From Synergistaceae bacterium (GTDB lineage: Bacteria; Synergistota; Synergistia; Synergistales; Synergistaceae): a stretch of DNA of 64,000 nucleotides. Shown here one piece after another: positions 1-60,803 of the stretch (position 1 is its first letter; each line of letters begins with the position of its first letter). The DNA is taken from NCBI GenBank assembly GCA_045617925.1, contig JAZLJR010000053.1:11206-75205 (forward strand), read 5' to 3'. The position numbers and the translations under genes are program-made. The notes beneath the pieces were generated by a model. It worked only from the letters and a program-made list of their open reading frames with translations. It did no database searches and was not told the origin of the DNA.

Positions 1-687
1 GCAAAAGCAGAAGCACCAATAAAAAACACACCAGCACAAGTTGCGCAACAACCAATTATTCCTAATCTAAATCAAAATGCAACTGATGTGCAGTCTGAAC
101 AGAAAAAAGTTTCTGCTCCTGTTACAGCAAGCTCATTTAATGAGCCAAGCATTAAAGCTACCTCTCCTTTTGACGAAAGGGTGGATGCCTTTACCTCTAC
201 TAAATCTGAACAAATTGACACAAGCAACTTTATAAAGTCATTTGGTGAAAATGATTTTTCAAAGATAGTTGCCTCTGTTTCACAAGACAACTATGAATTT
301 GCTGCTGCACTTCTAAATGCAAAAATTTTGCAGGATGGCGAGGAAATCATTTTTGAAACAGAAAATGACTCATTATCTAACGCATTTTTGAATATTCCTT
401 TCAACAAAGAAGTTGCTAGTGTGGCAGTGAAGAAAGCCTTTGGCTTGATTAAGGAAACACAAGCTGAAGAGAAAAATGAGGCACAGCCGAGAATAGTTGA
501 TGCACTACAAAATCCTGTCAATCAAAATTCTGCGGGAGCATCAATGCAGAAAATGAAACAAGGTGCAACAGGCGGTGAGACACAGGCTATTTCTGCAAAT
601 GCAGACAAGATATTAAAACTTGCAGGAGCAGAACTTCTCTATGTTGAAAAGGATGTTATAGAATTAGAGGAAGAAAATGATGGATAA
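1..687 (+). CDS. 3' part of an ORF entering from upstream of the window; possibly the C-terminal region of DNA polymerase III tau/gamma (DnaX)
   Basis: Frame 1 is open from base 1 to the TAA at 685-687. A Q/P/N-rich linker is followed by segments (FAAALLNAKILQDGEEIIFETENDSLSNAFLNIPFNKEVASVAVKKAFG and ADKILKLAGAELLYVE) that resemble the tau C-terminal region as I remember it. The stop overlaps the dnaE start. The family call is tentative. Confidence 0.4.
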   Translation, partial: AKAEAPIKNTPAQVAQQPIIPNLNQNATDVQSEQKKVSAPVTASSFNEPSIKATSPFDERVDAFTSTKSEQIDTSNFIKSFGENDFSKIVASVSQDNYEFAAALLNAKILQDGEEIIFETENDSLSNAFLNIPFNKEVASVAVKKAFGLIKETQAEEKNEAQPRIVDALQNPVNQNSAGASMQKMKQGATGGETQAISANADKILKLAGAELLYVEKDVIELEEENDG

Positions 688-3600
688 ACCGTTTGTTCAT
701 CTTCATGTGCACACTGAATATAGCTTGCTAGATGGTGCTAACACCTGTGCTTCTCTTGCAAAAACGACCAAAGAAATGGGGATGAATTCTTGCGCAATAA
801 CAGACCATGGTGTCATGTTTGGTTGTGTGGAATTCTATAACAAGTGTAATGATGCAGGTGTAAAGCCTATTCTTGGCTGCGAAGTCTATGTTGATGAACG
901 CGGTTACAGGTGCCGTGATGGAAAAAATCAAAATCACTTAATCCTTTTGGCAGAAAATGACGAAGGCTACGCCAATCTCGTAAAGCTGGTATCAATAGCA
1001 AATACAGATGGATTTTATTATAAACCGCGTATTGACCATGAGCTTTTAGCCAGTTATTCAAAGGGGCTCATTTGTGCTTCTGCTTGTCTTGGAGGAGAAA
1101 TTCCACAGCTTATTATGGCAGGAGACTTGGAAGGTGCAAAGAAACGTGCCAGTTTATACAATGACATAATGGGAACTGGTAATTTCTTTCTAGAAGTTCA
1201 AGCTAATTCTTTGTCAGAGCAAGCCATCGTAAATAAAAATCTGATAGCTATGTCAAAGGAAATGAATATTCCGCTCATTGCTACAAATGACGCACATTAT
1301 TTGAAAAAAGAAGATGCTGCATGGCATGATGTCCTCCTTTGTATTCAGACTGGGGCGCTTGTAACAGATCCACAACGTTATCGTTTTACTGGAGACGATT
1401 ATTATTTCAGAAGCCCTGAAGAAATGTGGGCAATCTTTGGTAACGAGTTGCCGGAAAGTTTGACTAATACACAACTGATAGCTGATAGATGTAATGTCAA
1501 ATTAAAGACTGGAAAGTATTATCTTCCTGTGTTCCCATTGCCAGAAGGGGAAACGCTTTCAACGCACCTTACAAAGTTGGCACATGAAGGTTTACGCAGA
1601 AGACTAAAGACAGAAAATCCACCGGAAGAATATCTTAAACGGCTTGAATATGAGTTAGGAATTATTATTCAGATGGACTTTCCTGGTTATTTCTGCATAG
1701 TATCAGACATTATAATGGCTTGCAAAAATCAAGGAATTCCAATTGGACCTGGCAGAGGTTCCGCTGCTGGTTCACTTGTTGCCTATTCTCTTGGCATTAC
1801 AGAACTCGACCCCTTGAAATACAATTTACTTTTTGAAAGATTTTTGAATCCAGAACGCATAAGCATGCCTGATATTGATACTGACGTTTCGGACAAGGGA
1901 CGCGATAAGTTAATAGCCTATATCGTTCAAAAATACGGAATTGACCATGTGTCACAAATTATTACCTTTGGACGTATGAAGAGCCGTGGAGCAATAAAGG
2001 ACGTAGCTCGCGCCTTGGATATTCCAATTCCCGAAGCAAATGCAATAGCCAAGTTAATTCCAGCTATGCCAACGCCAGAAATTCCAAACATCAAGGGCGC
2101 TCTTGAGCATGTTCCGGAGCTAAAAGATGCCTATGAAAATAAGCCTCATATAAAAAAATTGATAGATATTGCTGTTAATATTGAGGGGCTTGCTCGTCAT
2201 TGCTCACAGCATGCTGCCGGAGTTGTTATAACTCCTAAACCAACAAGTGAGATGGTTCCTGTCAGAAAATTTGCTGAAGGACAGGTCGCCACACAATACC
2301 CGATGGAGCCTATTGAAAAATTAGGTTTGGTAAAAATGGATTTCCTCGGGCTTCGCACCTTGTCAGTTTTAGAAGGTGCTTTGAAAAATATTGAGCAGAA
2401 TGGCAAAAAGCCCGTGTCACTTAATGACATTCCACTAGACGATAAGAAAACCTATGAAATGCTTATTTCAGGTGATACGCTTGGTGTGTTTCAACTTGAA
2501 TCCTCTGGAATGACTGCCTTAATAAAGAGGCTTCGTCCAGACTGTTTTGAGGACATAATAGCACTTGTTGCTATGTATCGTCCTGGACCGTTAGAAAGTG
2601 GAATGGTTGACACCTACGTTAGGTGCAAGCATGGCGAAGAAGATGTGCATTATCTTCACCCATTGCTTGAGCCATACATGAAAGATACCTATGGAGTTAT
2701 CCTTTACCAAGAGCAGGTTATGCAGAGCGCTCAAGCACTTGCAGGCTACACTCTTGGTGAAGCAGATTTGTTACGTCGTGCTATGGGAAAGAAGAAAAAA
2801 GATGTCATGGCACAAGAACGAAACAAATTTGTTGATGGTGCGTTGAAGAATAACATTGACGGAGCAAAGGCAGGAGAAATATTTGATATTATAGAAAAAT
2901 TTGCTGGTTATGGATTTAATAAATCCCACAGTGCTGCTTATGGTTTAGTATCTTATTGGACTGCATATTTGCGTTGTCATTATGGGGCTGAATATCTTGC
3001 GTCTTATCTTTCAAGCTTAATAGGTGGAACAAGAAAAGAAGTTTTTGGTGCATACATCAGAGCTGTGCGTGATGCAGGGTTTGAAGTTTTGTCGCCTGAT
3101 ATAAATATTTCTCGTCAAGATTTCACAGTTGATGGTGATGTCATTCGCCTTGGCTTATCTGCCATTGCACATGTTGGTGATGCTGCCGTTGCAACAATTC
3201 TTGAGCAAAGGGAAAAATCTCCATTTACGTCATTGTGGGATTTCTTAACTAGGATTGACACGCAAAAAGCAAATAAGGCTGTAATTGAAAATTTGATTAA
3301 GGCTGGAGCTTTTGACAGTATTGATTCAAACCGTGCAAAACTTCTTAAAAACTTACCTGATATGATAGACAAGGTAGGCAAAAAAGACAAAAATAAAAAT
3401 CAGGCTTCACTTTTTGGAGATGATGAGTTATTAGAAGAACCCAAAATAATTGAATGTCCTGATTTTACTGATAGAGAAAAATTAGAAAATGAACGTGATA
3501 GTCTTGGACTTTACATTTCTGGTCACCCATTTGATCAATACGAAGAAGATGCAAGACGTTATGCAACATGCCCAATAGCTTCACTTGCTCAATGGACTTC

Positions 3601-4093
3601 CAAGGCTAAGCCTATTGTTGCGGGGGTACTTTCTTCAGTAACAGAAAAGTTTAGCAAAAAAACGGGAGATCCTTATGGTGTTGCCGTTTTAGAAGATAAT
3701 GTGGCAACTGTTGAAGTTATGCTTTTCCGAGATAGATGGGCAGCGTTAAAACCTGTGTTGCAAAAAGGTGAGTTTTACTTCTTTGAGGGTAATGTTCGTC
3801 AGGATAGAGGGGTGTCATTCTTTGTTACTGATGTTTACTCAGAAAGTGAATGTAAAGAAAAACTAACACCTCATGTGACACTTGAGGTTGATACAGAAGG
3901 CAAGGAAGAAAGATTTTTTGAAGGGATTTTTAGAATTTTGTCAAGTCATAAAGGACAAGATGAAGTTTTATTAAAATTAAAGAATGAAGATGAAACATTA
4001 GTTGCAAAATTGCGCAGAAATTTGGTAAAGTTTGACGATAGTCTTATAAAAGACATAACAGATTATGGTGCTGGTGTTATAAACATATATTAA
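677..4093 (+). CDS. dnaE: DNA polymerase III alpha subunit
   Basis: 1138 aa. N-terminal PHP domain (FVHLHVHTEYSLLDG), polymerase core motifs (GPGRGSAAGSLVAYSLGIT, PDIDTD, NKSHSAAY) and a C-terminal OB-fold region. Confidence 0.95.
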   Translation: MMDKPFVHLHVHTEYSLLDGANTCASLAKTTKEMGMNSCAITDHGVMFGCVEFYNKCNDAGVKPILGCEVYVDERGYRCRDGKNQNHLILLAENDEGYANLVKLVSIANTDGFYYKPRIDHELLASYSKGLICASACLGGEIPQLIMAGDLEGAKKRASLYNDIMGTGNFFLEVQANSLSEQAIVNKNLIAMSKEMNIPLIATNDAHYLKKEDAAWHDVLLCIQTGALVTDPQRYRFTGDDYYFRSPEEMWAIFGNELPESLTNTQLIADRCNVKLKTGKYYLPVFPLPEGETLSTHLTKLAHEGLRRRLKTENPPEEYLKRLEYELGIIIQMDFPGYFCIVSDIIMACKNQGIPIGPGRGSAAGSLVAYSLGITELDPLKYNLLFERFLNPERISMPDIDTDVSDKGRDKLIAYIVQKYGIDHVSQIITFGRMKSRGAIKDVARALDIPIPEANAIAKLIPAMPTPEIPNIKGALEHVPELKDAYENKPHIKKLIDIAVNIEGLARHCSQHAAGVVITPKPTSEMVPVRKFAEGQVATQYPMEPIEKLGLVKMDFLGLRTLSVLEGALKNIEQNGKKPVSLNDIPLDDKKTYEMLISGDTLGVFQLESSGMTALIKRLRPDCFEDIIALVAMYRPGPLESGMVDTYVRCKHGEEDVHYLHPLLEPYMKDTYGVILYQEQVMQSAQALAGYTLGEADLLRRAMGKKKKDVMAQERNKFVDGALKNNIDGAKAGEIFDIIEKFAGYGFNKSHSAAYGLVSYWTAYLRCHYGAEYLASYLSSLIGGTRKEVFGAYIRAVRDAGFEVLSPDINISRQDFTVDGDVIRLGLSAIAHVGDAAVATILEQREKSPFTSLWDFLTRIDTQKANKAVIENLIKAGAFDSIDSNRAKLLKNLPDMIDKVGKKDKNKNQASLFGDDELLEEPKIIECPDFTDREKLENERDSLGLYISGHPFDQYEEDARRYATCPIASLAQWTSKAKPIVAGVLSSVTEKFSKKTGDPYGVAVLEDNVATVEVMLFRDRWAALKPVLQKGEFYFFEGNVRQDRGVSFFVTDVYSESECKEKLTPHVTLEVDTEGKEERFFEGIFRILSSHKGQDEVLLKLKNEDETLVAKLRRNLVKFDDSLIKDITDYGAGVINIY

Positions 4094-4115
4094 ATAACTT
4101 TGAGGAGGATTTATT

Positions 4116-4346
4116 ATGCAGGAAGTTTCTCGTGAAAATTTCATATTAGTAAAGGCAAAAGAAAATGGAGTAACAGTTACTGGTGTAACTAGAGGAATTG
4201 AGAATAAATTTTTACATACGGAAAAATTGGAAAGTGGAGAAGTGTGGATTTCTCAATTTACAGATAATATTTCTGCAATGAAGATACATGGAAATGCGGA
4301 GATATTAACTTCAATTGGTAATATAACTAGTGGTGATACAGAATAA
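4116..4346 (+). CDS. mtrB: TRAP-like protein (trp RNA-binding attenuation protein, MtrB family)
   Basis: 76 aa, with SD GAGGAGG at 4102-4108. It aligns without gaps to Bacillus TRAP as recalled (DFVVIKA.EDGVNVIGLTRG.DT.FHHSEKLDKGEV.IAQFTEHTSAIKVRG versus NFILVKAKENGVTVTGVTRGIENKFLHTEKLESGEVWISQFTDNISAMKIHG). Roughly half the residues are identical and the length is the same. Confidence 0.7.
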   Translation: MQEVSRENFILVKAKENGVTVTGVTRGIENKFLHTEKLESGEVWISQFTDNISAMKIHGNAEILTSIGNITSGDTE

Positions 4347-4361
4347 GGCAAGATGTAAAAA

Positions 4362-5651
4362 ATGAAAAAATTTGCTTTAGAAAATACTCTTGAAGATTGG
4401 CAAAACTATATTGCCGCTATAGGTGAAGCAAAATATCGAGCGACGCAAATTACAGAGTGGATTTGGAAGAAACATGCTACGTCTGTTGATGAAATGACAA
4501 ATTTGTCAAAAACATTGAGAGAAAAATTAGATGAGGACTTTAATTTTTCATATCCAGAAGTGCTGTTAACCAAAAAGAGCAAGGACGGAACTAAAAAATT
4601 TCTCTTAAAATTACACGACGATGAAACTATAGAAATGGTGCTGATGAAATATGGTGACCGTCTTACGCTGTGTCTTTCCACACAGGTTGGCTGTCCTTTG
4701 GGGTGCACTTTTTGTGCAACCGGTGCAAGTGGATTTGCAAGGAATTTGACGGCTGGTGAAATTGCTGCTCAATTTTTATTGGCAGAAAAAATTGCTTCTC
4801 GTGATTTGTCAAACGTTGTTTATATGGGGATGGGGGAGCCGTTCTTAAATACAGAGGCTGTATTAAAGTCTATCAGGCTTTTAAATCACGAAAAGTTACG
4901 TGGATTTGGAATTCGCCATTTTACAATTTCTACATCTGGAATTGTAAAAGGTATAGAAGCATTGCGTGATGCAGCCTTGCCAGTTCGTTTGGCTGTTTCA
5001 CTCCACGCTGCAGATAACGAATTGCGTAGCTTTTTAATGCCTGTTAATGAGACAAACACCTTGCCAGAATTACGAAAAGCACTTGTCAATTATCAAGAAA
5101 AAACAAATGATAGAATTTCCTTTGAATATGCATTGTTTGGCGAAGTGAATGACACTGTAGAGCGTGCAAGAGAGCTAGTGCATTTTCTGCGCGGTATACA
5201 TTCCTTTGTCAATCTTATTCCATATAATTCAACTGGAGGAAGATATAAAGCTCCAACTCCAGAAGCTGTCCTGCGTTTTAAATCTATTTTGGAAACAGCT
5301 GGTTTTGAAACAGAAATTCGCTCAAGTATGGGGCAGGACATTGATGCTGCTTGTGGGCAATTAAGGCGCAAAATAGCAGATGGTGAAGCAGAAAAAATAA
5401 CTGAATCCTATACAAAGACTGATACAGTTCTTCATGCAAATATGTTGCACGATGAAGCAAATATTGCACGTTATGAGAGAAAAGCCAAATTATTAGAACA
5501 AAAATTGATAGGCAAAGTAGCCAAAAAGACTACAACTGGTGGCTTTATCGATAAATTTCGCCGTAAAAAAGACACCAATAAAATGAGTAATAAAAGTAAA
5601 ATGTCTGATTCAAAAGTAAAACGGAATTTTAGAGGAGCGAGAGAAAAGTAA
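4362..5651 (+). CDS. rlmN: 23S rRNA/tRNA adenine-C2 methyltransferase RlmN (radical SAM) with a Lys-rich C-terminal extension
   Basis: CPLGCTFCATG radical-SAM cluster motif, a GMGEP motif and the C-terminal catalytic Cys (DIDAACGQL). About 85 extra basic residues follow the conserved core. Confidence 0.9.
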   Translation: MKKFALENTLEDWQNYIAAIGEAKYRATQITEWIWKKHATSVDEMTNLSKTLREKLDEDFNFSYPEVLLTKKSKDGTKKFLLKLHDDETIEMVLMKYGDRLTLCLSTQVGCPLGCTFCATGASGFARNLTAGEIAAQFLLAEKIASRDLSNVVYMGMGEPFLNTEAVLKSIRLLNHEKLRGFGIRHFTISTSGIVKGIEALRDAALPVRLAVSLHAADNELRSFLMPVNETNTLPELRKALVNYQEKTNDRISFEYALFGEVNDTVERARELVHFLRGIHSFVNLIPYNSTGGRYKAPTPEAVLRFKSILETAGFETEIRSSMGQDIDAACGQLRRKIADGEAEKITESYTKTDTVLHANMLHDEANIARYERKAKLLEQKLIGKVAKKTTTGGFIDKFRRKKDTNKMSNKSKMSDSKVKRNFRGAREK

Positions 5652-5695
5652 TATTTTCTTTTACTCGTGTTGAAATCTTTTATGAGGTATCTAAA

Positions 5696-6040
5696 TTGAA
5701 ATTTTTATTATTCTTATTGATAGGAACATTATTGTTTGGACTTCCTTTTCTGAATGTCGTTTTGTTCTTTTGTCTTTTGCCAGTTTTAATACTATTTATC
5801 TTTATCCTAATAGGTCTCATAACTGGACGTGGAACTATAATCATAAATAATGGTTTCTTTGGCAACTACAGAAGACGAAAAGACAAAAAAAAGAAAGAAA
5901 AAGCAAAGAATATTTACGATGTTCCACATGATAGAGATGAACATAAAACGCATGCACAAAATCATGCCGTTAGTGTTGCAGAAATAGAAGAATCTAGTGA
6001 AGTTGTAGAGCTTGATAGCGATGCTTTGAAGAAAGAATAA
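5696..6040 (+). CDS. hypothetical small membrane protein (two predicted TM helices, basic linker, acidic tail)
   Basis: TTG start 9 nt after GAGG. Hydrophobic N-terminal 45 aa. The ORF is followed immediately by a strong terminator. I recognise no family. Confidence 0.45.
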   Translation: MKFLLFLLIGTLLFGLPFLNVVLFFCLLPVLILFIFILIGLITGRGTIIINNGFFGNYRRRKDKKKKEKAKNIYDVPHDRDEHKTHAQNHAVSVAEIEESSEVVELDSDALKKE

Positions 6041-6080
6041 AAAAATCTTGGTGATAGCAATTATCACCAAGATTTTTTTA
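6041..6080. terminator. bidirectional intrinsic terminator between convergent genes
   Basis: Perfect 12-bp stem ATCTTGGTGATA (6045-6056) / TATCACCAAGAT (6062-6073) with a 5-nt loop, an A-run upstream and a T-run downstream. Confidence 0.8.
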
Positions 6081-7319
6081 TTCATATTTCAGAGCGTCTA
6101 TAGGATTCATTAAACTTGCTTTGCTAGCTGGATAATAACCAAACCCAATTCCAACTGCAACGGAAAAAAAGAATGAAATTAAGAGAGACGAAAAAGAAAA
6201 GATTGGACTTACTCCGACAAAAGATGCCAAGACACATCCAAGTGCGAATCCAAGTAATATGCCAATTATACCGCCAAACATAGAGAGCACTGATGACTCA
6301 ACCAAAAACTGCACCTTTATATCATCCTGTGTAGCTCCGATTGCAAGACGAATTCCAATTTCTCTTGTTCTTTCTGTAACAGATACAAGCATGATGTTCA
6401 TAATGCCAATTCCACCTACTAGCAGTGAAATGAGAGCAATAGTGTATAATAGAAACGTAAGGGTTTGGTTGGCCTGACGCCTTGCTTCCAACATTTGGCT
6501 AACATTTCTTACGGCAAAATCGTCATCTTCCCCTTTTTTAATGCGATGTTTTTCCCTTAACACCAATTCTGTTTCATGTTGAACATAATTTAAGGCATCC
6601 ATTGATACTGCTTTTATATAAATGTAATTGATGCGTCCTGGAGTTGAGAAACGGACTAGCCTTTTTTGTGCCGCAGTTAACGGAACTAAAACAAAATCGT
6701 CTTGATCACGCCCCATGGAAGAAATTCCTTTTTGCTCTAAAATGCCAACAACCTTAAAGGGAACTTTATCTATTCTAATTACCTGACCGATTGGATTGAA
6801 CCCAGAGTAGAACAATTTTTCTACTACTGTGCTTCCCAAAACAGCTACCTTAGCACTTTGTTTAACGTCAGTTTCCGTTATATTTCGTCCATAATCTATC
6901 TTGAAATCAGTAACATTAATGTGACTTGATCCTACCCCCAGCACAGCAGAACTCCAATTTGAATTCTTATATATTATATTTGCAGATAAGTCAACTACAG
7001 GAGAAATTGCTTCAATTCCACTAACATCACGTTCTATTGCCTGTGCATCACTGTAGGTTATAAAATTCATCTTATCTCTGTTTGATGAATTTCCGCCTCT
7101 ATCAGGAAAGATCATTAAGAAATTGCTACCAAAGGACGATATTTGTTCATCTATGACTTTATTGGTGCCTTCACCAACTGCAAGTGCGGCAATAACTGCT
7201 GCGACGCCAATTATTATTCCAAGTGACGTTAGTATAGAACGGGTTCTATTTGTTTTTATTGCTTTTATTGCTGTTGTAAAAATTTCATTTGCTGCAATCA
7301 TAATAGCCTCCTTACTCAC
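6078..7319 (-). CDS. MacB-type ABC transporter permease (FtsX-like, with periplasmic domain)
   Basis: 413 aa. N-terminal TM helix, large extracytoplasmic domain and a C-terminal FtsX-type 3-TM bundle. The start overlaps the stop of the upstream ATPase gene. Confidence 0.9.
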   Translation of the reverse strand: MSKEAIMIAANEIFTTAIKAIKTNRTRSILTSLGIIIGVAAVIAALAVGEGTNKVIDEQISSFGSNFLMIFPDRGGNSSNRDKMNFITYSDAQAIERDVSGIEAISPVVDLSANIIYKNSNWSSAVLGVGSSHINVTDFKIDYGRNITETDVKQSAKVAVLGSTVVEKLFYSGFNPIGQVIRIDKVPFKVVGILEQKGISSMGRDQDDFVLVPLTAAQKRLVRFSTPGRINYIYIKAVSMDALNYVQHETELVLREKHRIKKGEDDDFAVRNVSQMLEARRQANQTLTFLLYTIALISLLVGGIGIMNIMLVSVTERTREIGIRLAIGATQDDIKVQFLVESSVLSMFGGIIGILLGFALGCVLASFVGVSPIFSFSSLLISFFFSVAVGIGFGYYPASKASLMNPIDALKYE

Positions 7320-8008
7320 CGTCTGTTATTATTGATTTTATCATCTTGTATAACTCCGTCTTTGAAAAATAGGATACGTTTGGCATATGTTGCAACATCC
7401 GGCTCGTGTGTAACAAGGATAATAGTGATTCCAGTATCGTTAAGTTCTTTAAAAAGAGTCATTATCTCATCGCTAGTTTTTGAATCTAGGTTTCCTGTCG
7501 GTTCGTCTGCCATCAAGATTGGTGCACTATTTACTATGCCCCTAGCTATTGCGACTCTTTGTTGTTGTCCTCCTGAGAGTTGTGTAGGCTCGTGGTGAAT
7601 TCGATCTAACAGGCCCATCTTATCCAGTGCCTTTTTAGCTCTCTCATAACGATCTTGTTTGGAGACCCCCGCATATAATAAGGGCATAGCAACATTATCT
7701 AATGCTGACGTTTTTGAAAGCAAATTAAACCCCTGAAATACAAAGCCTATTAACTGATTTCTCATGTGAGCTAATTGATCGCTAGTTAATGTTGCTACGT
7801 TTTTGCCATCAAGAAAATATTCTCCAGATGTTTGTTGATCAAGACACCCTAATATATTCATTGTTGTGGATTTGCCAGATCCTGATGGTCCCATCATAGC
7901 AACAAACTCACCCTTTTCAACAGAAAGATTAACGCCGTGGAGTATCTCGAGATATTCATCTCCTAATTTGAAAGATTTTCTTATGTTTTTTAATTCAATT
8001 ATTGGCAT
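7316..8008 (-). CDS. MacB-type ABC transporter ATP-binding protein
   Basis: Walker A GPSGSGKST, signature LSGGQQQR, Walker B ILMADEPT. Confidence 0.9.
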   Translation of the reverse strand: MPIIELKNIRKSFKLGDEYLEILHGVNLSVEKGEFVAMMGPSGSGKSTTMNILGCLDQQTSGEYFLDGKNVATLTSDQLAHMRNQLIGFVFQGFNLLSKTSALDNVAMPLLYAGVSKQDRYERAKKALDKMGLLDRIHHEPTQLSGGQQQRVAIARGIVNSAPILMADEPTGNLDSKTSDEIMTLFKELNDTGITIILVTHEPDVATYAKRILFFKDGVIQDDKINNNRR

Positions 8009-8028
8009 CTTATACTCCCAATGGCAAT

Positions 8029-9243
8029 TTATCTCTTGTCAGGAGGTAAGTTTATTCCTGTGATAACCTGAGATCCAACTTCTAAATCGCTTATAAGTTC
8101 CGTGTTTATGCCGTCAGTTATTCCAATTTTGACTCCGTAGGCAATAGGCTTATTTTTCACCAATAGATAAACAATTGCTCCATCTTCATCTTGTTGATTC
8201 GAACTCGTCATGTTTTTACGTGGATTGCGTCCAAAACCCCCACCAAAGCCTTTTGATTTTATTTCTGTCTCTTGAGGTTTAAAACGGAAGGCAGCATTAG
8301 GAACACATTTTACATTTTTTTTCTCTTGTAAAATAATGTTTATATTGGCTGTCATCCCAGGTAATAATTTTTTATCCTTATTCTTTACCTTGATTACAAC
8401 AGTGTAAGTTACAACATTGTTGTTATTAGTTGGTGATAAACGCAGTTGTGAAACTGTTCCCTCAAATTTTAGTTCAGGGTAGGAATCAACATCAAAAACT
8501 GCCCTTTGTCCTTCTTTGATATACCCGATGTCTGCTTCGTCAATATTAGCTTCAACCTGCATATCTGTGAGATCTTTTGCAATTTTTGCTATTGAAGGAG
8601 TTTGGTAGCTAGCTGCAACTGTCTGACCTCTCTCAACATTTTTCATGGTAACGACGCCGGATACAGGGGAGTAAATTCGAGTATAATTTAGGTTAATTTC
8701 TGCTTTCTTAAGGCTTGCACGGGCTTGCGATAATCGTGATTTAGACTGAGATAAAGAGGCCATTGCCTTTTTGTAAGTTGCACGATAGCTATCTACTTCA
8801 GATTTTGCAATGAGATCTTCTTTGGCTAGTTCTAAAGCTCTTTTATAATCTAACTGTGCTTTTTCTAGTGTGACATTTGCAGTTTCAATATCAGAAATAC
8901 AAGAAGCTACCGATGCCTCAGCTTCAAGCTTATTAGCTTCGTAAGTGTCGGAATCCATTAAAGCAATAAGTTGTCCTTTTTCTACTTTACTATTATAATC
9001 AAAATATAATTCTTCTATACGTCCTGAAATTTGTGTGCCAACGTCTACTGTTTCAACTGGTTGCACTGTTCCAGTTGCTTGCACGACAGATTGTATGTCC
9101 CCAATGGTTACAGGAGCTAACACATAGCCTATTTTGTTTTTTTTGCTTCCGAAAAAGAAAAAAAGTAGTGCAATTAAAATAACAATTATTGAAGCAATTA
9201 CTGTAGGCTTTTTACCGTGTCTGAAAAATGACTTAATTTGCAT
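8029..9243 (-). CDS. periplasmic adaptor (HlyD/MacA membrane-fusion family)
   Basis: N-terminal TM anchor, coiled-coil hairpin region and beta-barrel domains. Sits between the TolC-like and MacB-like genes. Confidence 0.85.
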   Translation of the reverse strand: MQIKSFFRHGKKPTVIASIIVILIALLFFFFGSKKNKIGYVLAPVTIGDIQSVVQATGTVQPVETVDVGTQISGRIEELYFDYNSKVEKGQLIALMDSDTYEANKLEAEASVASCISDIETANVTLEKAQLDYKRALELAKEDLIAKSEVDSYRATYKKAMASLSQSKSRLSQARASLKKAEINLNYTRIYSPVSGVVTMKNVERGQTVAASYQTPSIAKIAKDLTDMQVEANIDEADIGYIKEGQRAVFDVDSYPELKFEGTVSQLRLSPTNNNNVVTYTVVIKVKNKDKKLLPGMTANINIILQEKKNVKCVPNAAFRFKPQETEIKSKGFGGGFGRNPRKNMTSSNQQDEDGAIVYLLVKNKPIAYGVKIGITDGINTELISDLEVGSQVITGINLPPDKR

Positions 9244-10510
9244 TGTATCTTTCTCCTATTGTTCTTAAATATTCTATTTGTGATGCTCTAAAGGTATATA
9301 GTGCTTTTAACGTATTATATTGTGCATTTGCCAACTTTTCTATTGCATCTGAAATTTCTAATGAATCTCCTGTTCCTGCCTTATACCTTCCATTTGCAAG
9401 TTTTAAGGTTTCTTCAGCTGCATTTTCAGCTTCTAACATTGAAAAATATGCTTCATTTGATTTATTCATGGCGGTTATTGCTACATTGACTTCGTATTTT
9501 ACAGAATTTTCAATATCCTTTAATTTTGAAGCTGCAATTTCTTTTTTTGCTTGCGCTTCTCTAATTTTGCTGTTTGTTACACCGCCATCAAATAACGGTA
9601 TTGAAGCTGATAACCTTGCATTCCATTGATCAGAATCAAAATATGTGTCACTGCCAAAATTATATCCAACACCTGCAGTAAATGATGGGGAATAGCCTTT
9701 TTTTTGCAAGGTTAAATTTTCATTAGACGCAGAAAGAAGCGCCTTTTTTGCAAGTAACTCGGGACGATTTTTTAACGCATTTTCTATTGCATTTGTTGTG
9801 TCAAATTTTGTATCTTGATATGTTAGACTTTCGTCTAACTCTTTTATATCCGAAACTTCTAAACTGAGAAGTTGTGCTAATTTTTGTTTGCTCTCTTCAA
9901 AATCTGCTTGATTTTTTACGAGCTCAGATTTTGAAGTTGCAAGCTCTGACTTTGCTCTTGTTACCTCAATTTTTGCCTTTGTTCCAACCCTATAAAAACT
10001 TTCTGCCCATTTCAGTCTGTTTTCATAATTTTGATGTTTTCTTTCTGCAATAGTTACACATTCTCTGTTTACAAGTGTTGTCCAATAAGCAAAAACAGTT
10101 TCAACAATTAGGTCATTTTCAGCTGCCTTGAAATCATATTCAGACGACAAGAAATTAAACTGTGCAGTGCGGATGTTTGCTTCTGTCTTGCCTGAATCTG
10201 AAAGTAACTGTTCAAGGCTTAACCCAGTGTTGTAAGCTCCTGTTTGGTGGCTAGCGGAAATTCCCTCTGTTCCTCTGCGCACATAAGAAGCATTTGCAGA
10301 GAGAGTTGGACTTTTTTTCTTTTCTTGCTGTGCTAGAGCTTCCTTTTGAACTTGCACTTGTTTTGACTGCATTTGCAGTGATGGATTATTCTTTAATGCT
10401 GTTTCTATTGCCTCTGACAATGTTAAAGCAGATGCCTTGTAAGGAATTTGGCAAAGATAAATTCCCAAAATCATTATCATAATTTTTAATTTATTGTTCA
10501 TAGTAATCAC
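9233..10510 (-). CDS. TolC-family outer membrane efflux protein
   Basis: 425 aa. Signal peptide and two tandem repeats of the alpha/beta outer-membrane-factor architecture. Overlaps the adaptor gene by 11 nt. Confidence 0.85.
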   Translation of the reverse strand: MITMNNKLKIMIMILGIYLCQIPYKASALTLSEAIETALKNNPSLQMQSKQVQVQKEALAQQEKKKSPTLSANASYVRRGTEGISASHQTGAYNTGLSLEQLLSDSGKTEANIRTAQFNFLSSEYDFKAAENDLIVETVFAYWTTLVNRECVTIAERKHQNYENRLKWAESFYRVGTKAKIEVTRAKSELATSKSELVKNQADFEESKQKLAQLLSLEVSDIKELDESLTYQDTKFDTTNAIENALKNRPELLAKKALLSASNENLTLQKKGYSPSFTAGVGYNFGSDTYFDSDQWNARLSASIPLFDGGVTNSKIREAQAKKEIAASKLKDIENSVKYEVNVAITAMNKSNEAYFSMLEAENAAEETLKLANGRYKAGTGDSLEISDAIEKLANAQYNTLKALYTFRASQIEYLRTIGERYNAN

Positions 10511-10534
10511 CGATTTATAATACAGTTTTTTTTA

Positions 10535-11881
10535 CTAACTCAAAGGTAGAGTAACGACAAAGGTTGTTCCCTGACCCTGTTTGCTTTTTGCAATTATTTT
10601 ACCACCGTGGGCTTCTACTACTGCCTTAACAACGGATAGACCAATTCCCATACCTCCAGATGCTCTTGTTCTTGATTTATCTGTCCTGTAAAATCGCTCA
10701 AATATGTTTGGCAAATCTTTTTCTGCAATACCAATGCCTGTATCGGAAATTGCAAGAGTTACAACATTATCTTTTGGCGATGGTGTCAAGAATATGGAAA
10801 TTGTGCCACCAGAGTCTGTATAGCGGATAGCATTTGTAAGCAGATTGTTTATGGCTTGACGTATTTTTGGAGCATCTAGTTTGCAAAATATGCCATCGTT
10901 AATGTCTGATTTTAATTCAATATTTTTTGATTTAGCTAGAGGAAAGAAGCTTGATATTGAATTTTTCAATAGGTCGCTAAAATTGCTTTGTTCAAAAGAC
11001 ATTGCGTTGTCCATTCCTTCTATTGTCATCAATCGTTCAACATCTTTTATCAAATTAGAAAGTCTGTCAACTTCTTCCACGGTCAAATGTATTCGTTCTG
11101 GTGTTGGTTGCCAAATTCCGTCCTCAATTGCTTCTAAATGTGACTTAATAATTGTTACAGGGTTGCGCAATTCATGTGTGATGTCTCCCATCATACGTTG
11201 CCGCAACTTTTCTTGCAGATCAAGCCTTTGTCCTAATGTATCAACACTATCTATCAGCTGTTGAATTTCTGTTATGTTGCTTGTCATTTCTTCTTTTTTA
11301 ACATAATCCCCTTTGGTTATGGTCTTAGCCCGTTCTGTTACTGCCATTATTGGCTTACTTATTTTATATGCAATAAATATTGCTAAGAGTGCACTGAGGA
11401 GTAGGAGGGAAGCGACAGTATGGAATAACAAAATGTTAAATTTTTTCAAAAATATTCCTTCCGGACTAGCGGAAAATGGCAGGCAAACAAAGCGAAGTGT
11501 GCCAATTGGGGTATTTTTAATAGATAGTTTATCTTCATACACCAGTAATTTTTCATTTTTCATATGGTATCTAGCCATACGCTCTTTTTTATATAATTTT
11601 ACAAGCTTGCCATCTTTATCAAGAAGCTGAACAGAGACAATAGGCCATCTATAAAAATCAAATTCTGATGTATATTTTACAGCAGTGCTCCAATCTTGAT
11701 TTTTTTTGTATAAATCTGTGAAATATTCACGAGCAGTGTTTCTATTTTCCTTAAGTTTTTCACTGGCAAATTTTTTGAAGTTCCAATCAAGTAATTGAGA
11801 AATGGAAAGTGGAATTACTAGACCGCAAATGAGCACCAACAAGAGATATTGAATAATATGCTGTGTTCGTAAGCTTCTCAT
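10535..11881 (-). CDS. sensor histidine kinase (two TM helices, HAMP, HisKA, HATPase_c)
   Basis: H-box ITHELRNP, N-box NLLTNAIRY, G-boxes DTGIGI and GGMGIGLS. Confidence 0.9.
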   Translation of the reverse strand: MRSLRTQHIIQYLLLVLICGLVIPLSISQLLDWNFKKFASEKLKENRNTAREYFTDLYKKNQDWSTAVKYTSEFDFYRWPIVSVQLLDKDGKLVKLYKKERMARYHMKNEKLLVYEDKLSIKNTPIGTLRFVCLPFSASPEGIFLKKFNILLFHTVASLLLLSALLAIFIAYKISKPIMAVTERAKTITKGDYVKKEEMTSNITEIQQLIDSVDTLGQRLDLQEKLRQRMMGDITHELRNPVTIIKSHLEAIEDGIWQPTPERIHLTVEEVDRLSNLIKDVERLMTIEGMDNAMSFEQSNFSDLLKNSISSFFPLAKSKNIELKSDINDGIFCKLDAPKIRQAINNLLTNAIRYTDSGGTISIFLTPSPKDNVVTLAISDTGIGIAEKDLPNIFERFYRTDKSRTRASGGMGIGLSVVKAVVEAHGGKIIAKSKQGQGTTFVVTLPLS

Positions 11882-12564
11882 TATTTATCTCCGTCTGTTA
11901 ATTTATAGCCGAAACCATAAACAGTTTTTATAAAATCATGCTCTGGGTCGTGTAGTTTTTTTCTGATGTTTTTTATGTAGCTATCCACAGATCTTTCAAA
12001 GCCGTCATAATCATCACCGAGAGCATAGGTGATGAGTTCATCGCGAGACCAAGTTTTTTCCGGTCTGTTTGCCATGCAGGATAAAATTAAAAACTCATTT
12101 TTGGTCATAGGAATTTCAATATCGTCTTTATAAACAGCATAGTTTTGAGGTTTAATGACTAAGTGAGGGCCGATTTTTATAACTTCAGAGCCTTCGCTAA
12201 ATTCTGCTCCTGTTTTTCTAAGGTTAGCTCGCACTCTTGCCATCAGCACCTTTGGAGAAAAGGGTTTTATGACGTAGTCATCTGCTCCAGCATCTAGTCC
12301 TGCAATGATATCGTCTTCACGGCTTTTTGCGGTTACCATTATTATAGGAGTATTTTTTTTAGAACGAATAAAACGACAGACCTCAAGGCCAGACATTCCA
12401 GGTAACATCAAATCGAGAATTACTAGGTCATAATCAAACTCTTCAAATTTTTCTATCCCAATAGCGCTATTTTCGGCAATATCGGCAGAATATCCTTCTT
12501 TTTCTATGTATGCACGTTCCACCTCTGCAATTGCTTTTTCATCTTCTATTATTAGAATTTTCAT
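11881..12564 (-). CDS. OmpR-family response regulator
   Basis: Receiver domain (DLVILDLMLPG) plus a winged-helix C-terminal domain (GFGYKL). The stop overlaps the kinase start. Confidence 0.9.
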   Translation of the reverse strand: MKILIIEDEKAIAEVERAYIEKEGYSADIAENSAIGIEKFEEFDYDLVILDLMLPGMSGLEVCRFIRSKKNTPIIMVTAKSREDDIIAGLDAGADDYVIKPFSPKVLMARVRANLRKTGAEFSEGSEVIKIGPHLVIKPQNYAVYKDDIEIPMTKNEFLILSCMANRPEKTWSRDELITYALGDDYDGFERSVDSYIKNIRKKLHDPEHDFIKTVYGFGYKLTDGDK

Positions 12565-53643: not shown

Positions 53644-54741
53644 TTAATCTGAAATTATTTTTATTATAGCACCTGCTAATGCCTTTGTGTTGTGACGTAT
53701 TACCTTATTGTCAACAATGTCACAATAATCACCATATATAATTGAAGCTCCTAATCCTGTTAGATATTCGTCTTCTTCTCGTGTTAAATATAATGGTTCT
53801 GCACCAATAGCACGATAATTCTCTGCTATGTTTTCCGGAATAACCTTTGAATTTACAATAATATAATCAGGAACGCGACCGAGACAACCTGCTATCCAGT
53901 CCACATGTGACACTATGTTCATACCTTCTGTTTCTTGAGGCTGTGTCATAAGATTAGCAATGTATATTATTGGAGACATTGTATCTTGACATAACTGCGA
54001 AATTTCTTTAACAAGCAAGCTCGGCATAACGCTTGTAAGTAAAGACCCTGGACCAAGCACAATAGCATTAGCTTCTTTTAACGCTTTTTTCACAGATGGT
54101 TTAACATGTTCCACCTGTGGATCTAGCCAAAGTTTTTTCAAATTTTTTCCATTTTCGGAGATGGATAATTCTCCAACAACGTGCTTGCCTTCGTCAGTTA
54201 CTCCAACGAGGCGGACACGCTCTTCTGTCATTGGCAAAACATTTCCTTTTATTGCCAACAACTTATTTAGTGACTCAACGGCTAAACCAAAATCACCAAA
54301 TATTTCAGTTGAAGCAAGCACAATCAAGTTACCAAGTGAATGACCTGCTAGAGATTCTCCCTTGTCAAAGCGATAATTCCAAATATCTGCCATATAGTTT
54401 GTGTCTTCTGCAAGTGCAACCATGCAGTTTCGCAAATCTCCAGGAGGCAATATCCCCCACTCTTTTATGATTCGTCCGCTGCTTCCACCTTCATCTGTAA
54501 CAGCGACAATTGCAGTTATGTTTGGCGTAAACAACTTTATGCCACGCAAAAGTGTAGAAAGACCAGTTCCCCCACCGATGGCAACAATTTTTGGTGATTG
54601 TGTTTGTTGTGTTTTGTTGGTGTCAGTAGGCTGTTTTTTGCTAAAAGCATTTTTTAGTGAATATATAAAATCAGGCTTAATATACACTCCAAGAAAAAAT
54701 GCGACTATAGCTATGACAGTAACTGTAATCACATTTAACAT
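53644..54741 (-). CDS. yvcK: YvcK/CofD-like gluconeogenesis factor with an N-terminal TM helix
   Basis: The core (IVAIGGGTGLSTLLRGIK, VTDEGGSSGR, GN) is typical of the YvcK family. The first ~25 aa are strongly hydrophobic and are followed by a polar linker. Confidence 0.85.
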   Translation of the reverse strand: MLNVITVTVIAIVAFFLGVYIKPDFIYSLKNAFSKKQPTDTNKTQQTQSPKIVAIGGGTGLSTLLRGIKLFTPNITAIVAVTDEGGSSGRIIKEWGILPPGDLRNCMVALAEDTNYMADIWNYRFDKGESLAGHSLGNLIVLASTEIFGDFGLAVESLNKLLAIKGNVLPMTEERVRLVGVTDEGKHVVGELSISENGKNLKKLWLDPQVEHVKPSVKKALKEANAIVLGPGSLLTSVMPSLLVKEISQLCQDTMSPIIYIANLMTQPQETEGMNIVSHVDWIAGCLGRVPDYIIVNSKVIPENIAENYRAIGAEPLYLTREEDEYLTGLGASIIYGDYCDIVDNKVIRHNTKALAGAIIKIISD

Positions 54742-55148
54742 GTCTTTGCTCCTAAATCATTTTCAATATCTTGATGAATAACTTCCACAAGATACCCCTT
54801 AGATTTTAAAGCTTGAGCAGCGTATATTGCTACAGTAACGGATCTGTGTCTGCCACCAGTGCAACCTATTGCTATTTTTATTTCGTCCTTTTCTTTTCTA
54901 GCCTTCAAATAGAAGAGGGTCGTTTCTACTATTAAATTAATAAATGGCTCAAAGTCTGCAGATTGCTTTACAAAATCTTGGACACCTTTGTCTAATCCAC
55001 TTTTTTCTTTTAGTGAAGGTTCCCAAAATGGATTTGGTAAAAATCTCGCATCAAATACACCTTCTGCAACAAAACCAGTTTCATACTTGAAGCCAAAGGA
55101 ATAAATTTTAATTTTTTTGTTAGTGTTTGTTTGAGATTCAACAGTCAT
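54735..55148 (-). CDS. RapZ (YvcJ) C-terminal domain-only protein
   Basis: SFGFKY, DARFLPNPFW and IGCTGGRHRSV motifs of the RapZ C-terminal domain. No Walker-A N-terminal domain is present. I prefer the ATG at 55148 (GAGG 9 nt upstream), because the track start at 55211 leaves only 10 nt to the divergent gene. Confidence 0.75.
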   Translation of the reverse strand: MTVESQTNTNKKIKIYSFGFKYETGFVAEGVFDARFLPNPFWEPSLKEKSGLDKGVQDFVKQSADFEPFINLIVETTLFYLKARKEKDEIKIAIGCTGGRHRSVTVAIYAAQALKSKGYLVEVIHQDIENDLGAKTC

Positions 55149-55221
55149 ATTATTTGCCTCTACTTTTATCAGCAATTTGTGATAGAATATTATATCATAA
55201 AAGTTACTCAAGGAGATTACT

Positions 55222-55530
55222 ATGTTTGAATTATTAACTGAAAATTTTGAAGAATTTAAAGAAAAAGATTACGCTTTGGTGGATTTTTGGCAGACAACCT
55301 GCCCGGAATGTATGGCACTAAAGCCACAATTGGAAGCACTGGAAAAGGAATTTGCCGATGTAATTTTTTACTCTCTTGATTGTCAAAGGGAAAGAAAACT
55401 GGCAATATCCTTAAAAGTCTTTGGTTTACCTTCTGTCATACTGTTTTCTAAAGGAAATATGTTGTGCAAGTTGCAAAAGGAAAACTGCACAATAGATAAT
55501 ATCAAGCAAGCTTTGAATGAAAAACATTAA
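55222..55530 (+). CDS. thioredoxin-fold protein with an atypical CPEC active site
   Basis: LVDFWQTTCPECMALKP and GLPSVILF (cis-Pro loop) fit the thioredoxin fold. Confidence 0.7.
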   Translation: MFELLTENFEEFKEKDYALVDFWQTTCPECMALKPQLEALEKEFADVIFYSLDCQRERKLAISLKVFGLPSVILFSKGNMLCKLQKENCTIDNIKQALNEKH

Positions 55531-55972
55531 CTTCCTTACAAAATCGGCACTAATTGCTACCTTTTATGTTTGTATAACGTTATTATTTTCGCCTATTTCA
55601 TTCGGAGTTATACAACTTAGAATTTCTGAGGCCCTTTGTATCTTAGCATTTTTCTTACCTGAAGCAATAATAGGGCTTTTTGCGGGGTGTCTCGTTTCAA
55701 ATTTTTTTGCAGGTTTAGGACTGTTTGATATAATACTTGGAAGTTTAGCTACGTTGTTATCTAGCTACTTGTCGTATAAAACAAATAACATATTTTTAGC
55801 GTCGTTTTATATCACAATTATAAATGCGATTTTAGTCGGTTTTTCTCTGGCATATATAGCAGGTTTGCCTCTTTGGTTAGGCTTTATTTCAATTTTTGCA
55901 AGTGAAGCAATAGCTACAGTTTGTTTAGGTATTCCACTCAGCAAATTTTTACATCTTGCCAAAAAAAAGTAA
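55517..55972 (+). CDS. queT: QueT-family queuosine-precursor transporter (ECF S-component-like)
   Basis: SPISFGVIQLRISEAL and GS.ATL motifs as recalled for QueT. About 5 TM helices. Overlaps the thioredoxin gene by 14 nt. Confidence 0.7.
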   Translation: MKNINFLTKSALIATFYVCITLLFSPISFGVIQLRISEALCILAFFLPEAIIGLFAGCLVSNFFAGLGLFDIILGSLATLLSSYLSYKTNNIFLASFYITIINAILVGFSLAYIAGLPLWLGFISIFASEAIATVCLGIPLSKFLHLAKKK

Positions 55973-60405: not shown

Positions 60406-60549
60406 CAAAATTGTAATTTTTGTTGAATTTATTTGATTTTTTACGAAAATTTTATGTTTTTTGAAAACTGGCATAAAAAAAGCAAGAGGCGCTAACTCTC
60501 GTCCCTTGCTAATAGGGTTCAATAATTTTATAAAAGCTATTTTTATAAA

Positions 60550-60750
60550 TTACAGTTTCTGAACGTTCGTTGCTTGTGAGCCTTTTTCGCCATCTGTGAC
60601 GTCAAAGCTAACTTTCTGACCTTCGTCCAATGTCTTGAAACCATCGCCCTGGATTGCTGAGAAGTGAACAAAAACATCGTTACCATCTTCTGTTGTGATG
60701 AATCCGTAACCCTTTGTTGCGTTGAACCATTTTACTGTTCCGTTAGCCAT
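60550..60750 (-). CDS. cspA: cold-shock protein (CspA family)
   Basis: GTVKWFN..KGYGFI and [11 protein letters not shown] motifs. Confidence 0.9.
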
Positions 60751-60803
60751 GATAACTGGAACCTCCTTAGAAGTTATACAACTACAAATATGTAATTGTG
60801 CGA

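Follow-up and report, generated by a model that had tools for sequence, protein, structure and literature searches.

TRAP (product of mtrB; trp RNA-binding attenuation protein) is a textbook model of ligand-gated RNA binding and ring cooperativity, and nearly all work on it concerns Bacillus and its near kin. Here, we analyse a TRAP-like gene at positions 4116..4346 on the plus strand of a 64,000-nucleotide stretch of a Synergistaceae genome (contig JAZLJR010000053.1, positions 11,206 to 75,205), which as a whole is called the window throughout. In B. subtilis TRAP, the side chains of T30, T49, T52 and S53, together with main-chain atoms of T25, G27, D29 and Q47, form hydrogen bonds with the bound tryptophan. 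The contacts of T30 and T49 are essential and those of T25 and Q47 contribute; T52 plays only a limited part, and S53 can be dispensed with. Glu36, Lys37, Lys56 and Arg58 are the principal RNA-binding residues (PMC1474065). The TRAP of Alkalihalobacillus halodurans regulates a trp operon leader (PMC11725872). Compared with these systems, the window gene encodes a genuine TRAP that belongs to a lineage conserved through the Synergistota, with related TRAPs in metagenome-assembled genomes (MAGs) of Aerophobetes, Halanaerobiales, Clostridia and Planctomycetales, and it probably acts as an orthodox member of the family.

A TRAP ortholog in the Synergistaceae

The open reading frame (ORF) at 4116..4346 encodes a protein of 76 residues, MQEVSRENFILVKAKENGVTVTGVTRGIENKFLHTEKLESGEVWISQFTDNISAMKIHGNAEILTSIGNITSGDTE, and is preceded by a Shine-Dalgarno sequence GAGGAGG (4102..4108, plus strand), with the ATG 7 nt on. 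It lies 22 nt after the end of the dnaE stop codon at 4093 and 15 nt before the start of an rlmN-like gene at 4362. This close spacing, the Shine-Dalgarno sequence and the lack of a terminator between the genes had been described in an initial annotation made from the DNA letters, and all were confirmed from the sequence and by a terminator scan.

The same annotation proposed membership in the TRAP family, and a profile hidden Markov model search bears this out: Pfam PF02081 (TrpBP) matches with 101.4 bits (E 2.5e-29; gathering score 21.3 bits), residues 6-72 covering profile positions 2-68 of 69. By phmmer, residues 6-72 align without a gap to residues 6-72 of B. subtilis TRAP (1wap), and BLASTP against the B. 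subtilis-type TRAP P0076 gives 35 of 72 identical positions (49%), gapless and in the same numbering, as the annotation had stated. TRAP chains of the Protein Data Bank (PDB) match at E 3e-17 to 4e-19. The AF2 monomer model (pLDDT 81.6) consists of beta strands throughout, and its best Foldseek matches in the PDB are TRAP chains only (41/41; TM 0.66-0.84, rmsd about 2-3 Å). The named relatives in a large protein database are all MAG proteins from Synergistaceae, Synergistes or Cloacibacillus, which already bear the NCBI name "trp RNA-binding attenuation protein MtrB". The gene is a real TRAP homolog with the TRAP fold, and the Synergistaceae ortholog of MtrB.

When the clade alignment was run against 185,579 species-representative genomes, it yielded 80 loci, mostly from Synergistaceae, Thermovirgaceae and Acetomicrobium, with smaller groups labelled Aerophobetes, Clostridia, Halanaerobiales and Planctomycetales MAGs; counts out of 81 below are these loci plus the window. 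The closest locus, L001, comes from an uncultured Synergistaceae bacterium and is 98% (dnaE), 97% (TRAP) and 96% (rlmN) identical to the window.

Every substitution listed initially in comparison with Bacillus (D29E, T30N, D39E, T52I and R58H) is real, and G23, T25, R26, G27, F32, E36, K37, Q47, T49, S53 and K56 are kept as claimed; we add H34 to the conserved positions and T28I, H33L and H51N to the changes. The placement of T30 in the tryptophan pocket and of R58 among the RNA contacts agrees with the published work (PMC1474065). Within the pocket, T25, G27, Q47, T49 and S53 are therefore kept, D29E concerns a main-chain contact, and T30N and T52I are changed; the RNA-contact set retains E36, K37 and K56 and has His in place of R58. 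Across the family, G23, T25, R26, G27, H34, E36, K37, Q47, T49, S53 and K56 are invariant (81/81).

The changed positions behave differently from one another. Residue 29 is Glu in 80/81 and residue 52 Ile or Val in 50/81, while residue 39 is Asp in 65 and Glu in 16. Residue 30 (codon 4203..4205, plus strand, AAT; Thr in Bacillus TRAP) is Asn in 32/81, namely in the window and L001-L031, and Thr in all others. Nearly all carriers of N30 bear the label Synergistaceae or that of a genus within it, so that N30 is the normal, family-wide Synergistaceae state. It changes together with two other positions: Synergistaceae have N30, L33 and I52 (codon 52 of the window at 4269..4271, plus strand, ATT; Thr in Bacillus TRAP), where Thermovirgaceae have T30, A/S33 and T52. 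Residue 58 (4287..4289, plus strand) is Arg in 79/81 and His in the window and L001 only; a protein 91% identical to that of the window (P0002) has R58. The codon is CAT in the window and L001 and CGT in L002, another close relative, a single CGT-to-CAT change, and H58 thus appears to be a recent change private to this lineage. When 1.84 billion representative proteins were searched exhaustively with HMMER, only 79 TRAP-like representatives were obtained, in which position 58 is mostly Arg, with Asn, Lys, Thr, Val or Ser in a few divergent ones, and in which N30 is found in one further lineage (P0055). The survey of orthologs for H58 and N30 suggested by the annotation thus separates a clade-wide residue from a private one. 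Four very long proteins from the same search (P0099, P0103, P0121 and P0126; 628-2714 aa) each hold 5-10 short stretches that resemble mid-TRAP only, the best of them within query residues 17-67; these may be unrelated beta-repeat proteins or TRAP-like repeats.

The gene is under purifying selection. The ratio of nonsynonymous to synonymous divergence (dN/dS) of mtrB is 0.05 between the window and L001 and 0.12 between the window and L002, beside 0.03-0.04 for dnaE, which shows mtrB to be functional. The two genomes in which H58 is fixed differ by a dS (synonymous divergence) of 0.22-0.38, so that this residue has persisted over an appreciable synonymous distance. Between the window and L002, TRAP is more diverged (77% identity) than its neighbours dnaE (94%) and rlmN (85%). 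Most of these differences fall in the N- and C-terminal tails; residues 12-57 differ at positions 16, 28 and 31 only, none of which is an invariant contact residue.

Published mutagenesis indicates what the substitutions may mean. B. subtilis TRAP T30N binds tryptophan with an S0.5 of 4.5 µM (wild type 1.5 µM) and (GAGUU)11 RNA with a Kd of 518 nM without and 70 nM with tryptophan (wild type 1 nM); RNA binding is still enhanced by tryptophan, and the authors describe the variant as "partially constitutive" (PMC1474065). Since T30N binds tryptophan and T52 has a limited role, a pocket with N30, I52 and L33 is still a plausible tryptophan pocket; I52 and L33 may compensate for N30 in the natural proteins, and the Synergistaceae pocket possibly confers some ligand-independent activity. 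At position 39, the D39A variant has a slightly higher RNA affinity than the wild type (Kd 0.25 nM vs 1.0 nM). R58A binds with a Kd of 26 nM, a cost of about 26-fold, and still depends on tryptophan, whereas T30V/R58A abolishes RNA binding (PMC1474065). By analogy, H58 probably weakens the RNA contact rather than abolishing or re-targeting it.

Gene order, trp-linked relatives and candidate RNA targets

In the window, mtrB is directly preceded by dnaE (DNA polymerase III alpha subunit; 677..4093, plus strand; Pfam PHP, DNA_pol3_alpha, DNA_pol3_finger and HHH_6) and followed by the rlmN-like radical SAM gene (4362..5651, plus strand; RlmN_N and Radical_SAM). The window start cuts a gene of which the 3' part (1..687, plus strand) is called dnaX (DNA polymerase III tau/gamma). 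Its ORF at 88..687 has no Pfam match of its own, and the name is given because of the synteny with the near-identical relatives L001 and L002, whose gene in this position belongs to a cluster (c1) with 45 further dnaX-like proteins, one of them, from the gene table of the relative L081, matching DNA_pol3_delta2 and DNAX_ATPase_lid. After rlmN follows a small hydrophobic ORF of 114 aa (5696..6040, plus strand), without a Pfam match and kept in L001 and L002 (cluster c30), the last before a bidirectional terminator-like hairpin with a perfect 20-bp stem (6037..6081). A simple terminator scan of the plus strand found no terminator-like site from 2484 to 5950, the hairpin at 6037..6081 being the first strong one; the genes from dnaX through dnaE, mtrB and rlmN to the small ORF therefore appear to form a single transcription unit, of which the hairpin is the probable end and in which dnaX opens the conserved dnaX-dnaE-mtrB block.

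The genomic context of mtrB had been regarded as unusual. Its position behind dnaE is the rule for Synergistota, and probably old: of the 80 loci, 61 have dnaE upstream of the TRAP gene, and among Synergistota all 60 loci that have upstream sequence show it immediately before mtrB. Synergistota loci usually run M48 peptidase, dnaX, dnaE, mtrB, pyk, an AP_endonuc_2 gene, cdaA, YbbR-like and glmM-like, in which pyk carries a PEP-utilizers domain, AP_endonuc_2 denotes an endonuclease IV-like protein, and the YbbR-like and glmM-like genes are named from sequence alone. The next gene after mtrB is pyk in at least 42 loci; rlmN holds the place of pyk, directly after mtrB, only in the window, L001 and L002. 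The pairing of mtrB with folE (mtrA) is not found here, as the window holds no folE and the upstream gene is dnaE, and it is a feature of Bacillus rather than of the TRAP family.

The called pyk ORF and the end of mtrB overlap in about 25 loci, at least 10 of which share an overlap of 14 nt, and a pyk start inside the end of mtrB suggests translational coupling. The 14-nt overlap is of the Thermovirgaceae and Acetomicrobium type (L035, L037, L039, L044, L050, L053, L056, L057, L060 and L068; about 10209-10222 in most), while Synergistaceae loci have gaps of 10-40 nt and a separate Shine-Dalgarno sequence for pyk. In L035, for example, the overlap reads gATGAAAaGAGTTAA, with the pyk start codon within the last mtrB codons; the bases differ among loci.

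In a Halanaerobiales MAG locus (L043, 6005-14774), the order is dnaE, a small membrane ORF, mtrB, accD, accA, pfkA and pyk. We take this to be close to the B. subtilis order dnaE...accDA-pfkA-pyk with mtrB inserted, which hints at an old position for mtrB.

Sister TRAPs look canonical in their setting. Five Aerophobetes-type loci (L058, L059, L065, L066 and L045) have, in order, mtrB, a GAG cluster, a terminator hairpin and trp genes. The cluster reads GAG-N8-GAG-ac-GAG-ag-GAG-gt-GAG, five GAG with 2-nt spacers between the last four, and falls well short of the 11 repeats in Bacillus. In L058 (stretch 7027-7590), a near-consensus promoter before mtrB (TTGACG-16-TATAAT) and the terminator hairpin (7360-7384) were called, and a matching TTGAC..TATAAT is visible in the other four. 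The genes trpB2-trpE-trpG-trpD are complete in L058 and L059; the other contigs are without trpB2 there or end early. Judged by this arrangement, mtrB in these Aerophobetes-type loci appears to head the operon that its product targets. These TRAPs are 52-58% identical to the window protein and have in common E29, W44, V52 and all invariant contact residues. Two Clostridia MAG loci (L034 and L051) show a (G/U)AG-rich leader and a T-run hairpin followed by an ABC_sub_bind-type transporter; the hairpin is called as a terminator in L034, and trpB2 comes after the transporter in L051. Their TRAPs share E29 and I52, and Aerophobetes and Clostridia TRAPs together are 52-61% identical to the window protein. 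Because E29 and I/V52 are common to trp-linked TRAPs, both residues are compatible with ordinary trp control.

Around the Synergistota genes, the search for targets was negative. In the window, GAG/UAG triplets with 2-3 nt spacers form no chain of 5 or more (shuffles reach 3-4 at most) and NAG triplets with the same spacers none of 7 or more; in the flanks of the 80 loci, up to 10 kb, no chain of 6 or more GAG/UAG or NAG triplets occurs, and periodic arrays of any NXY core do not exceed shuffles. With spacers relaxed to 2-9 nt, five matches were obtained in 1.3 Mb, none at a consistent or 5'-leader position; one of them (L034, 5431-5501) was discarded for want of a downstream plus-strand ORF. 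GAG runs at mtrB and pyk start codons in Synergistota were considered as spaced repeats and judged to be Shine-Dalgarno or coding sequence.

Genes for tryptophan biosynthesis are likewise missing near mtrB. Pfam on about 53 window ORFs found no trp gene, no folE and no pyk, and tblastn with TrpB2, TrpE, TrpG and TrpD found nothing in the window or in any Synergistota locus; with these enzymes and two ABC transporter components, matches came from Aerophobetes and Clostridia loci only. The annotation's observation that folE, trp genes and NAG arrays are absent from the window thus holds by Pfam, tblastn and triplet scans alike. Among 120 matches listed from a large-database search with Aerophobetes TrpE, none is from Synergistota, the named ones being Aerophobetes, Omnitrophota, Nitrospirae, NPL-UPA2 and unclassified bacteria. 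The CxxCxGxG motif of anti-TRAP is absent from a six-frame translation of the window, a weak test. Nothing relevant on mtrB or TRAP in Synergistetes came out of a literature search. A gut-microbiome reconstruction (PMC9026213 Table S5) scores Synergistes sp. 3_1_syn1 as prototrophic for tryptophan and Pyramidobacter piscolens as auxotrophic; given the prototrophy of the former, some Synergistaceae have trp genes for TRAP to control.

Function of the Synergistota TRAP

Altogether, we lean towards an orthodox TRAP that is expressed constitutively from a housekeeping operon, is activated by tryptophan and binds trp-related mRNAs from elsewhere in the genome at their (G/U)AG clusters. In such a mechanism, mtrB would be expressed constitutively within the dnaX-dnaE-mtrB-rlmN housekeeping unit, and the subunits would assemble into the usual ring, with L-tryptophan bound between them. 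The tryptophan-loaded ring would then bind clustered (G/U)AG triplets in mRNAs from other parts of the genome, the targets probably being genes of tryptophan biosynthesis or uptake. Three results weigh against this. In the B. subtilis background, N30 lowers the tryptophan-activated RNA affinity about 70-fold (PMC1474065). The window protein scores 99.1 bits against NCBIfam NF009724, under the cut-off of 117 bits, which is the curated equivalog level by which NCBI asserts the same function; homology to TRAP is, on the profile and alignment scores, beyond doubt, and this score by itself cannot assert the same function. Moreover, the 64 kb of the window and the sequence up to 10 kb from every Synergistota mtrB contain neither a trp gene nor a (G/U)AG array.

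The same score and the same lack of a canonical array or trp gene nearby would also suit an altered specificity, as the initial annotation had proposed, in which the N30/I52/L33 pocket binds another ligand and/or H58 shifts the triplet away from (G/U)AG, with a different regulon. The concerted shift of N30, L33 and I52 in Synergistaceae relative to Thermovirgaceae, and His in place of a base-contacting Arg, fit it too. We nevertheless consider this unlikely. The residues G23, T25, R26, G27, Q47, T49 and S53 as well as E36, K37 and K56 are invariant, B. subtilis T30N binds tryptophan at near wild-type affinity, and no periodic array of another triplet exists in the window. As signs of a new specificity, E29, I/V52 and N30 lose their force, being common among TRAPs, the first two even beside trp operons with GAG leaders, and positive support was not found. 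H58 is indeed unusual, but as a private single-nucleotide change in an AT-rich lineage it is not a clade feature. The combination of H58 with N30, which is itself weakening in B. subtilis, could instead mark a weakened or decaying regulator whose high-affinity RNA binding is disabled by R58H and which is kept for tryptophan buffering or a protein partner, or is being lost. Both the cost of R58A and the loss of binding in T30V/R58A go in this direction, as does the greater divergence of TRAP relative to dnaE and rlmN between the window and L002. Against it stand the low dN/dS, the fixation of H58 in two genomes at the dS given above, the mostly terminal position of the L002 differences, which spare the invariant contacts, and the ability of His still to donate hydrogen bonds, and we regard a decaying TRAP as improbable.

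The conserved neighbourhood allows yet another reading, namely that TRAP tunes pyruvate kinase and the use of phosphoenolpyruvate (PEP), or the dnaX-dnaE unit, on an aromatic amino acid signal. The constancy of dnaE upstream and the frequency of pyk directly downstream in Synergistota, the overlap of the called pyk ORF with the end of mtrB, and the order dnaE-x-mtrB-accD-accA-pfkA-pyk in Halanaerobiales can all be cited for it. However, apart from purine runs that resemble Shine-Dalgarno sequences, neither the surroundings of the pyk start nor the spacer between dnaE and mtrB contains triplet repeats, and in the window lineage pyk is gone from this position, yet mtrB is kept under purifying selection. 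As dnaE...accDA-pfkA-pyk is also the B. subtilis order, the linkage may be inherited synteny, and placement in a constitutive unit suits a ligand-activated sensor. There is, in our view, little chance that central metabolism is the target. A bolder proposal would see the Synergistota ring re-purposed as a global post-transcriptional regulator that connects an aromatic amino acid or other ligand to pyk, PEP use and non-trp mRNAs; it takes its grounds from the phylum-wide dnaX-dnaE-mtrB-pyk operon, the frequent pyk start in the end of mtrB and the partly tryptophan-independent behaviour of Asn30, and we hold it to be very improbable.

The host, and comparison with described TRAPs

The host is a low-GC diderm member of the Synergistaceae (window G+C 36.5%). 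The annotation had inferred a host unlike Bacillus from TolC-type machinery and from serS and cysS leaders free of T-boxes; an OEP/TolC protein is indeed encoded at 9233..10510, as part of a MacB-type efflux operon, and an Rfam scan of the window, with the regions upstream of serS and cysS included, shows no T-box. The operon (6078-12564, minus strand) comprises a MacB-like permease, an ABC ATPase, a membrane-fusion protein and the OEP/TolC outer-membrane protein; it converges on the small ORF behind rlmN, from which the hairpin at 6037-6081 separates it, and it is adjoined by a histidine kinase and an OmpR-type response regulator, a layout also present in the relative L081. The remaining genes of the window are housekeeping genes, among them nusA-infB-rbfA-truB, gap-pgk-tpi, serS, cysS and rpsB-tsf-pyrH-frr. 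Upstream of rpsB, at 60496-60800 (minus strand), Rfam reports the cspA thermoregulator RF01766 (86 bits vs gathering 78), presumably the sign of a gene for a cold-shock protein together with its 5' untranslated region. A QueT transporter gene at 55517-55972 (plus strand) has no preQ1 riboswitch match in Rfam, and a 158-aa ORF at 54735-55211 (minus strand) matches the RapZ C-terminal domain only.

Set beside the described systems, the window protein shares with B. subtilis TRAP (1wap; the G. stearothermophilus TRAP-RNA complex is 1c9s) the length class, numbering and fold, at 49% identity, and differs in its setting: its gene lies after dnaE in a diderm Synergistaceae, whereas the Bacillus gene is found with folE (mtrA), and the B. 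subtilis trp leader has 11 (G/U)AG repeats, a leader of a kind not found in the window. The best sequence match of solved structure is A. halodurans TRAP, a 12-subunit ring (3zzl; E 4e-19), with a Foldseek identity of 51% between the window model and 3zzl_A. Tandem-dimer constructs of the same protein reach lower E-values (9bds, 5e-40; 9be8, 2e-39) because both copies match. A. halodurans TRAP differs from the window protein at positions 30, 52 and 58 just as B. subtilis TRAP does. Unlike the window protein, Aerophobetes-type TRAPs keep T30 and R58, and a trp target is evident beside their gene.

The nearest experimental counterpart of the Synergistaceae proteins is the B. subtilis T30N mutant (Payal and Gollnick 2006, PMC1474065), which has Asn30 in common with 32 Synergistaceae-type sequences. 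The mutant is an engineered single change in a T52/H33/R58 background, and the natural proteins also carry I52 and L33. They form a natural family with a residue tied by mutagenesis to partly constitutive RNA binding, and such natural variants could be compared with the mutagenesis data.

In summary, three things are new here: the dnaX-dnaE-mtrB-pyk order throughout the Synergistota, the natural Asn30 clade and, as the gene order indicates, a TRAP heading its own trp operon in Aerophobetes. The understanding of TRAP itself is left unchanged, and the value is that of a comparative-genomics note. Relative to Bacillus, mtrB in Synergistota and in one Halanaerobiales locus lies by dnaE and near pyk rather than by folE.

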